Below are positions 31,201 to 31,716 of a DNA stretch of 54,842 nucleotides, in pieces (position 1 is the first letter of the stretch; every line of letters begins with the position of its first letter). A program made the translations under genes and the position numbers. This DNA is from an uncultured Pseudomonadota bacterium (GTDB lineage: Bacteria; Pseudomonadota; Gammaproteobacteria; Ga0077536): positions 1 through 54,842 of the forward strand of contig CACDEI010000005.1 of the NCBI GenBank assembly GCA_902551695.1. The letters run 5' to 3'. Below the pieces are notes generated by a model. The model was not told the origin of the DNA. It worked only from the letters and a program-made list of their open reading frames with translations, and did no database searches.

Positions 31201-31716
31201 TTATGCTCCTGGTAAATTATCTAGGATTTCTAAGAGATCCTTCCCCGCTGAAACTGGATTCACTTTTTCAATGATCTTTAAGATAATTCCCTCCTCGTCA
31301 ATGATAAATGTTGTTCTAGAAGCAAATTTTCCAAACTTTAAAACACCATATTCCGTGGCAGTGCTGCCATCCGGATCACTTAAGATTGGAAACTTCGCTC
31401 GATTTGCCTCAGCGAACTTTTTCAGTATTTCATATTCATCTGTGCTTGCCATTAATAAGGCTATTTCATGACTTTCCAGAGCTTTTTCACTTTCCCGAAG
31501 TGATTTACACTCAGCGGTTCAGCCTCCAGTGAATGCCTTAGGGAACCATGCCAAGACCACAGTACGCCCCCTGTAGTCCTTCAAAGCATGGAATTTACCG
31601 TCGGAGCCCATCAAATTAAATTCAGGGGCTAAATCACCGTCCGTAACCGCGAAAGCGGATTGGAGCGACATTAAAAGGGTGAGTAAAAAGATTCGCGTTG
31701 TGTTAATTGGAAGCAT
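31201..31716 (-). CDS. BCP/PrxQ-type peroxiredoxin with selenocysteine (in-frame TGA at 31521-31519) and signal peptide, 171 aa
   Basis: Track ORFs 31519-31716 and 31201-31452 are in one frame; read-through gives APEFNL..SDG...[41 protein letters not shown]...FPILSD...[11 protein letters not shown] falls at the PxxxTxxC peroxidatic position. Confidence 0.88.
31479..31518 (-). promoter_or_regulatory. Putative bacterial SECIS element
   Basis: After UGA: ACCGCU-GAGU-GUAAA-UCACUU-CGGGA-AAGUGA-AAAA-GCUC; perfect 6-bp upper stem, G-rich apical loop beginning after a 21-nt spacer from UGA, possible lower stem GAGU/GCUC. Confidence 0.7.

Follow-up and report, generated by a model that had tools for sequence, protein, structure and literature searches.

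The window analysed here is a 54,842-nucleotide (nt) stretch of DNA from an uncultured gammaproteobacterium (assembly GCA_902551695.1, contig CACDEI010000005.1). On its minus strand, between a gene for a glutathione-reductase-type oxidoreductase and genes for an isochorismatase-family hydrolase and a DUF427 protein, it carries a peroxiredoxin gene with an in-frame TGA codon, which we propose is read as selenocysteine (Sec). From 31716 to 31201, the minus strand forms a single open frame of 171 codons followed by TAA, and its sole interruption is that one TGA. A 65-aa open reading frame (ORF; 31716..31519 including the stop, ATG at 31716) ends at the TGA in 31521..31519; past it, the same frame continues without a further stop through an 83-aa ORF (31452..31201) to the TAA in 31203..31201. 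When the TGA is read as Sec (U), the product has 171 residues, including U66, C70 and R134, and the TGA occupies the peroxidatic position of the PxxxTxxC motif (P59-x3-T63-x2-U66). P59, T63, Cys70 and R134 are invariant in an alignment of 16 sequences. The first-pass annotation of this DNA had described a UGA-recoded BCP/PrxQ peroxiredoxin split into ORFs of 65 and 83 aa; its coordinates, ORF lengths and motif proved correct, and both the TGA at the peroxidatic Cys position and the catalytic Arg (R134) that it had pointed out are seen in the frame and in the alignment.

The BCP/PrxQ-like fold claimed in that annotation was likewise borne out. The Pfam domain AhpC-TSA (PF00578) covers residues 27-146, across the UGA, with an E-value of 2.8e-30 and 105.2 bits against a gathering score of 26, and Redoxin also matches (E 1.4e-22). 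An AlphaFold2 model based on the 16-sequence alignment reached a predicted local distance difference test (pLDDT) score of 88.1 and a predicted template modelling score (pTM) of 0.82, confidence being low only in the first 20 and the last few residues. Using Foldseek against the PDB, we found that the top matches of this BCP/AhpE-like model are all peroxiredoxins (E down to 6.7e-16), the best being Bcp1 of S. solfataricus (3drn; template modelling (TM) score to the target 0.88, root-mean-square deviation (rmsd) 1.7 Å), with M. tuberculosis BcpB (5epf; TM to the target 0.87) and AhpE as further matches; a sequence search of the PDB agrees with this result. Based on these comparisons, the protein appears to sit between the BCP/PrxQ and AhpE groups, resembling both about equally, with 30-33% identity to solved members. 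It scored 48.4 bits against the PrxU model of NCBIfam (NF040737; cut-off 270) and is thus not a PrxU equivalog. Since no NCBIfam cut-off was reached, the subfamily was assigned by resemblance.

One alternative accepts the selenoprotein and questions its activity: the product would not be chiefly a peroxidase but an exported thiol/selenol-disulfide oxidoreductase, using U-x3-C as a CxxC-like centre on envelope proteins, metals or metalloids. The protein looks exported, the invariant Cys70 follows Sec at a distance of four residues, and there are weak NCBIfam matches to ResA, StoA and WAxxUGC oxidoreductases (E 8e-13 to 2e-6), far below their cut-offs. However, the full triad P59/T63/U66 and R134 are invariant, every top match, whether by sequence or by structure, is a peroxiredoxin (BCP, BcpB, AhpE), and the Sec is located at the TxxU peroxidatic position and not in a thioredoxin-type WCxxC. 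We consider this alternative improbable.

The source assembly consists of 1,427,234 bases in 81 contigs (42.5% G+C, 71.6% complete), of which the window is contig C5. selA, selB, selD and tRNA-Sec, the machinery that the first-pass annotation had proposed to look for, are all four present in it, above curated cut-offs. selA is located at C8:23262-24596 (563 bits against a cut-off of 268), directly followed by selB at C8:24638-26524 (377 bits against 242), and tRNA-Sec, with anticodon tca, was found by ARAGORN at C8:27814-27908 (Rfam RF01852, 65.8 bits against a gathering score of 47). selD is located at C24:252-1160 (273 bits against 125) and lacks an in-frame stop. On the plus strand of C8:23262-27908, selA, selB and tRNA-Sec are thus clustered, with selD apart on C24. 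The GTPase part of the selB model (model positions 1-261) additionally gave two matches of the same score, 182.7 bits, at C1:15022-15888 and C1:31482-32348; these are probably duplicated EF-Tu genes, which we presume to be tuf.

Two further candidate selenoproteins were observed in the same genome. The first, at C29:3505-3933 on the minus strand, may be another Sec peroxiredoxin, of BCP-like type; its frame contains a TGA in ...WWYPVADTPGUTIEGKGFRD..., its domain starts from the first residues with no N-terminal extension, and it has no Cys at +4 or +5. The second, at C48:5919-6221 on the plus strand, is a Prx-like/thioredoxin-fold candidate with an in-frame TGA in ...FRGHWUPYCNAELE...; its UxxC motif is like that of the 'Prx-like' families in marine surveys.

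To compare the site among relatives, we used a six-frame search of 41 genomes, namely the source genome, 24 further members of its family and 16 genomes from other families of its class. Nineteen strong matches were obtained (E 6e-110 to 3e-38), each with exactly one TGA. They are distributed over 18 of the 25 family genomes, source included, one of which has two copies of the TGA-bearing orthologue. In the remaining seven family genomes and the 16 genomes of other families, only weaker peroxiredoxin paralogues were found (≤39% identity). Twenty loci were read: all 18 orthologues (L020-L037) have TGA at the same motif position, followed by x-[EQ]-C, and the other two, L038 and L039, are ordinary Cys paralogues (YPKADTPGC... 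and YPKDRTPGC...).

A scan of one genome per species with the patterns FPKAFTGG and [LAV][DKQ][YF]PILSDP[DET] returned at least 600 stretches, among them at least 588 confirmed relatives. The species-wide counts given here refer to the best 80 of at least 588 confirmed relatives, picked with the pattern FPKAFTGG. Among these 80 loci, the site is TGA in 67 and TGC or TGT in 11, and the motif expression was unmatched in two. Loci of the Sec form belong to Gammaproteobacteria/Pseudomonadales, Acidobacteriota (Vicinamibacterales), Myxococcota and a single bin of Acidimicrobiia; those with Cys were found in Planctomycetota, a single 'delta proteobacterium' and one gammaproteobacterial clade. The 18 family and 67 species-wide loci make up the 85 Sec genes considered below; three of the 67 are identical to family loci, so that at most 82 are distinct genes. 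A protein database search returned 2487 proteins at E ≤0.001, of which 15 were fetched. Cys occupies the site in 13 of them (≤57% identity); in the two closest, at 94% and 73% identity, the residue is W because their TGA was called under a code in which TGA is Trp. Both of these were called at full length; some metagenome callers evidently use this code on such short contigs. Calling the codon as Trp hides a selenoprotein in a different way from splitting its ORF. Taken together, TGA or Cys at the aligned site, with a conserved downstream frame, reads as the classical pattern of Sec/Cys homologues, as the first-pass annotation had anticipated.

In a quick tree, the 11 Cys genes fall into three groups, with at least three label changes, at least two of them forced by starred branches. 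We claim no direction of change between Sec and Cys, since the tree was given a midpoint root only and its loci are the pattern-picked best 80 of at least 588. Six of the Cys-form genes, all from marine Gammaproteobacteria (L054, L055, L057, L058, L085 and L094), form a clade in this tree with a Shimodaira-Hasegawa-like approximate likelihood ratio (SH-aLRT) support of 99, nested among gammaproteobacterial Sec forms; the hairpin described below is mostly lost in them, with two to four of six pairs. A replacement of Sec by Cys would fit this clade in the unrooted tree obtained by this quick method.

These data also bear on whether a standard amino acid (Trp, Gly or Cys) is inserted at the TGA, by reassignment of the code or near-cognate read-through. 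Such decoding could be read from the W in the two database gene calls, which is a product of the caller's choice of code and not evidence of decoding. TGA terminates 161 of the 622 stop-to-stop frames of at least 300 codons in the genome and is therefore not reassigned. Additionally, of the 31 tRNA genes found, none but tRNA-Sec carries the anticodon UCA, and a tRNA-Trp(cca) is present. The site is the catalytic Cys position, and 11 loci and 13 proteins have Cys there, never a sense-encoded Trp or Gly. Reassignment of the code was thus rejected, and insertion of a standard amino acid by either route is very improbable.

Shortly 3′ of the UGA, we identified a hairpin resembling a selenocysteine insertion sequence (SECIS). 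It begins 16 nt past the UGA (+16..+32), inside the codons of the conserved K-S-L-R-E-S, and the RNAalifold consensus of the 18 orthologues is exactly its 6-bp helix. Across their alignment, 97.2% of 108 cells are standard pairs, a proportion that dropped to 38-59% when the 3′ partner was slid by one to three columns. Changes on both sides occur in three of the six pairs, in 11 cells (for example, UA/CG/GC at the closing pair and GC/AU at the third), and none of 500 shuffles matched the observed covariation score or the percentage paired. In L037 the compensatory change is non-synonymous, with CUG...GAC for CUC...GAG, so that Glu becomes Asp and the pair is retained.

The comparison between Sec and Cys genes provides a control for this element. 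All six pairs are present in 61 of the 85 Sec genes and in none of the 11 Cys genes, five pairs in 17 and 2, and four or fewer in 7 and 9, respectively; at least five of six pairs are thus found in 78 of 85 Sec genes against 2 of the 11 with Cys. Folding of the 36-nt segment gives an average energy of -10.9 kcal/mol in Sec genes and -7.2 kcal/mol in Cys genes. Of the 85 Sec genes, 72 have CGUGA or CGUGC as the loop. In bacterial SECIS elements, the apical loop is located some 16-37 nt from the UGA and requires a G near its start, usually within a GU that is important for SelB binding. The hairpin of the window is spaced accordingly, and its loop has this G without the U. When the 76 nt around the UGA are folded as a single sequence, the structure includes the 6-bp hairpin and a 4-bp lower stem, which is absent from the consensus of the 18 orthologues. 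Four Rfam matches in the region (BMV3_UPD-PK3, Gut-1, Plastid-ndhJ and PVT1_3) were discarded as irrelevant, all being far below their gathering scores. The conservation and covariation of the stem-loop support its action as a putative SECIS.

Selection past the TGA was estimated from the ratio of non-synonymous to synonymous change (omega, Nei-Gojobori) in two close pairs of orthologues. For L020/L021, omega was 0.051 on the 5′ side of the TGA (42 codons) and 0.172 on the 3′ side (100 codons); for L023/L024, the values were 0.122 and 0.194 for the same numbers of codons. The region past the TGA thus evolves as coding sequence under purifying selection, and the relaxation there that would speak for a nonsense mutation was seen in neither pair. 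That the TGA is such a mutation, leaving a pseudogene or two unrelated small ORFs, is what a standard table-11 listing, with its ORFs of 65 and 83 aa, would suggest. Against it stand the recurrence of this TGA at 17 loci of relatives within the family and at 67 of the best 80 loci of other species and phyla, the omega values, the Pfam domain that spans the stop, the covarying hairpin and the Sec machinery. The pseudogene is thereby effectively refuted, and the preference of the first-pass annotation for Sec66 over a nonsense mutation is upheld by the machinery, the relatives with TGA or Cys, the omega of 0.17-0.19, the hairpin and the contigs of other studies.

A 2557-base stretch around the gene is present, whole or in part, in 20 public runs from 12 studies, which are marine or seawater wherever labelled. 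All its bins are covered by contigs from the DNA runs X2 and X3, which come from two other studies, and one 16,424-base contig spans it. At 31519-31521, where the first-pass annotation had asked whether reads might show TGC or TGT, no difference occurs among the 40 listed of the 74 differences from these contigs. The nearest listed differences were read as synonymous (31528, ACT to ACA; 31458, TTA to CTA), and a difference at 31453 gives L88F, a residue found in relatives. In contigs from two other seawater runs, a run of eight A at 31717-31724, between the stop of the reductase gene and the ATG of the peroxiredoxin gene, is one or two bases shorter (place 31718), which is homopolymer length variation in a probable ribosome-binding region. 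An error that made TGA out of TGC or TGT, for which only the fragmentation of the genome into 81 contigs could be adduced, was rejected on account of these contigs and of the same TGA in independent genomes of many species, and its probability is negligible.

Table 1. Features of the peroxiredoxin gene and its neighbours; positions are those of the window.
Feature	Position	Strand	Basis
Predicted Sec-containing peroxiredoxin, full coding sequence	31201..31716	-	Frame, AhpC-TSA domain, predicted fold
UGA codon 66, probably read as Sec	31519..31521	-	Peroxidatic motif position; relatives with TGA or Cys
Cys70 codon TGT, candidate resolving Cys, 4 residues past Sec	31507..31509	-	Invariant in 16-sequence alignment; T..C motif in 96/96 motif-bearing loci
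Arg134 codon AGA, conserved peroxiredoxin active-site Arg	31315..31317	-	Invariant in 16-sequence alignment; aligned to Arg of Bcp1 (3drn) and AhpE (4x1u)
SECIS-like hairpin UCACUU-CGGGA-AAGUGA, 6-bp stem and 5-nt loop	31487..31503	-	Covariation; kept in Sec genes
Signal-peptide-like N-terminus, residues 1-23	31648..31716	-	Basic residue, hydrophobic core, A-x-A (A-F-A) ahead of VTDGD; by eye
Glutathione-reductase-type pyridine-nucleotide disulphide oxidoreductase (461 aa), upstream, 24 nt off	31741..33126	-	Pfam families
Isochorismatase-family hydrolase (209 aa), downstream; ATG 1 nt past the peroxiredoxin stop	30570..31199	-	Pfam; downstream in 6/85 Sec loci
DUF427 protein (134 aa), next gene	30083..30487	-	Pfam; downstream in 13/85 Sec loci

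With its basic residue, hydrophobic core and A-F-A, the N-terminus of the protein resembles a signal peptide of the secretory pathway (Sec-type). In the model, pLDDT is below 50 at residues 1-3, 5-8 and 16-20. Comparable N-terminal segments were seen by eye in all 18 orthologues, and a crude hydropathy rule located a hydrophobic N-terminal segment in 77 of the 85 Sec and 8 of the 11 Cys relatives, several of the misses being parsing failures. Since such segments recur across the subfamily, and since the cytoplasmic-looking paralogue on C29 starts directly at its domain, the protein is probably exported by a cleavable signal peptide and would work in the periplasm. The genome also encodes a DsbD_TM protein (C2:55647-56294).

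The name 'glutathione reductase' (gor) for the upstream gene is our reading of its Pfam families. A gene of this type is located upstream on the same strand in 22 of the 85 Sec loci and in none of the 11 Cys loci. The 22 loci comprise 13 of the 18 in the family and 9 of the 67 others; two of these nine duplicate family loci and one has the reductase 1.6 kb away. The linkage is thus lineage-specific and found among kin, which makes it a weak hint at a connection with glutathione. A scan of positions 29900-33500 gave five promoter-like sites, against 6.6 expected from shuffles, and one terminator-like site, against 3.4; none of either kind was found on the minus strand between the three genes, a result that an operon would accommodate but that does not argue for one. 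Contigs from two metatranscriptome runs (X17 and X18) lie on the reductase gene (32147-32355 and 32218-32517) and on the isochorismatase-family gene (30892-31042). Elsewhere in the window, two tRNA clusters unrelated to the peroxiredoxin, Pro-Arg-His-Lys and Val-Asp, are located at 9605-10082 and 18264-18433.

Several observations weigh against this interpretation or parts of it. The genome is only 71.6% complete, and only 40 of the 74 differences from the contigs of other studies were listed. No NCBIfam model reached its cut-off, the best being BCP thiol peroxidase (NF006960/PRK09437) with 87.6 bits against 140. For the hairpin, the loop of the window itself, CGGGA, a form found in 7 of the 85 Sec genes, lacks the GU of the 72; the single-sequence fold of the 76-nt region is unexceptional (z = -1.13); and an Rfam scan of 31380-31600 at E ≤10 gave no SECIS family, the content of Rfam in bacterial SECIS models not having been established. 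No contig of the two metatranscriptome runs falls on the peroxiredoxin gene. The signal peptide was judged by eye and by the crude hydropathy rule only; the linkage to gor is confined to one lineage, whose members are kin and not independent; and the cytoplasmic location of Gor accords poorly with a peroxiredoxin in the periplasm. Lastly, selenium incorporation and peroxidase activity, like the selenenylsulfide step, export and the reductant, are deduced from established chemistry and from sequence only. Weighing these points, we put the probability that the TGA is decoded as Sec in a functional peroxiredoxin at about 0.9, a figure that does not extend to the periplasmic and glutathione parts.

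In the explanation that we propose, Sec would be inserted at UGA 31521..31519 by the standard bacterial SelA/SelB/SelD/tRNA-Sec pathway, directed by the hairpin at 31503..31487. In the catalytic cycle, Thr63 and Arg134 would activate Sec66, whose selenolate would attack the hydroperoxide and be converted into a selenenic acid. Cys70, located one helical turn further on in helix 64-75 of the model, may then resolve the selenenic acid into a selenenylsulfide, from which a thiol reductant would regenerate the enzyme. In the periplasm, this reductant could be a thioredoxin-like protein fed by DsbD, or glutathione; the latter, suggested by the glutathione-reductase-type gene upstream in this lineage, is tentative, and the odds are at best somewhat against it.

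Joined together, these elements would amount to a subfamily of selenoperoxidases that is exported to the periplasm and widespread, occurring in marine Gammaproteobacteria, soil Acidobacteriota, Myxococcota and other groups, with a Sec66-Cys70 selenenylsulfide cycle and a SECIS inside the KSLRES codons, which in the lineage of the window would be co-transcribed with glutathione reductase and recycled by exported glutathione. In this full form, the proposal is doubtful; if true, the enzyme would functionally be a periplasmic 'GPx' on a peroxiredoxin scaffold. In practical terms, gene calling that lacks a selenoprotein-aware step splits this gene and its many relatives into two small ORFs or puts Trp at the site. 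The expectation of the first-pass annotation that pipelines would probably register the gene as a pseudogene or as two hypotheticals was touched only indirectly, by the W in the two closest full-length proteins and by the scores below every NCBIfam cut-off. A profile for the FPKAFTGG-U-TxEC subfamily, combined with the small hairpin, would retrieve no fewer than the 85 Sec loci found here. The biological gain is modest, a well-supported case with a clean Sec-versus-Cys control for the hairpin being added to a known family, and it suggests that abundant marine Gammaproteobacteria have a selenoperoxidase that is probably periplasmic.

That Sec-containing peroxiredoxins are a known class of bacterial selenoproteins, as the first-pass annotation stated, agrees with the literature. 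The Sec 'Prx' family, with its TxxU motif, accounted for 43 genes in the Sargasso Sea (PMC1088965) and for 253 genes in the Global Ocean Sampling (GOS) data (PMC2398784), and it occurs in many sequenced bacteria (PMC1794560). A 2026 review lists Sec 'Prx', with the motif 'PxxxTxxU', among the established selenoprotein families (PMC13188914). Our gene shows every feature of this family (pfam00578/COG1225) that was testable here; they have in common the AhpC/TSA domain, Sec in PxxxTxxU, widespread Cys homologues, a marine distribution and a SECIS directly past the UGA. Judged from these features, the gene belongs to a selenoprotein family known since the early 2000s and abundant in marine metagenomes; 'hidden', the word used in the first-pass annotation, therefore applies to gene calling and not to the biology. 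The exact subfamily is very probably present among the survey sequences of PMC1088965 and PMC2398784. In their available portions, the surveys define the family by domain and motif, whereas the U-x3-C pair and the signal peptide are noted here. The terms 'signal peptide' and 'periplasm' are absent from the available text of PMC13188914, as is 'signal peptide' from that of PMC1794560; neither an envelope-located Sec peroxiredoxin nor a U-x3-C pair is described in the portions of the selenoproteome literature covered by our narrow search, outside which the sequence supplements lie.

Among structurally characterized proteins, Bcp1 (3drn), BcpB (5epf) and AhpE (1xxu, 4x1u) align with the model at TM scores to the target of 0.84-0.88, rmsd of 1.7-2.5 Å and 30-33% identity, with the Pro, Thr, Cys (Sec) and Arg residues superimposed; they differ from it in being Cys enzymes without a signal peptide. 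The spacing of the second Cys also differs, being U-x3-C here and C-x4-C in the Cys paralogues L038 and L039 of the family. E. coli BCP likewise has C-x4-C. PrxU of Eubacterium acidaminophilum is reportedly the subject of a paper by Sohling et al. from 2001. It is also a Sec peroxiredoxin but of another subfamily, with a profile of 233 positions (NF040737) against the 171 aa of the protein described here with its export-like N-terminus; according to the review, it is the experimentally studied Sec peroxiredoxin (PMC13188914).

Glutathione peroxidase resembles the proposed enzyme in that a selenol attacks the peroxide and thiols recycle it, and a glutathione-reductase-type gene lies upstream in the window. 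It differs in belonging to another branch of the thioredoxin fold, with the motif UxxT (PMC1088965); the protein of the window is not of the GPx family, and its dependence on glutathione is speculative. For the envelope location, PprX of Caulobacter crescentus provides a precedent; it is a periplasmic BCP/PrxQ-type peroxiredoxin that is reduced via ScsB and TlpA (PMC3322552). The likeness, drawn from its description, lies in a BCP/PrxQ-like peroxiredoxin with an N-terminal signal sequence, although PprX uses Cys where the protein of the window would use Sec, and no counterpart of ScsB or TlpA was identified in the present analysis. Its recycling by a DsbD-family transporter and a thioredoxin-like protein offers a model for an envelope peroxiredoxin in this genome, which encodes the DsbD_TM protein mentioned above.

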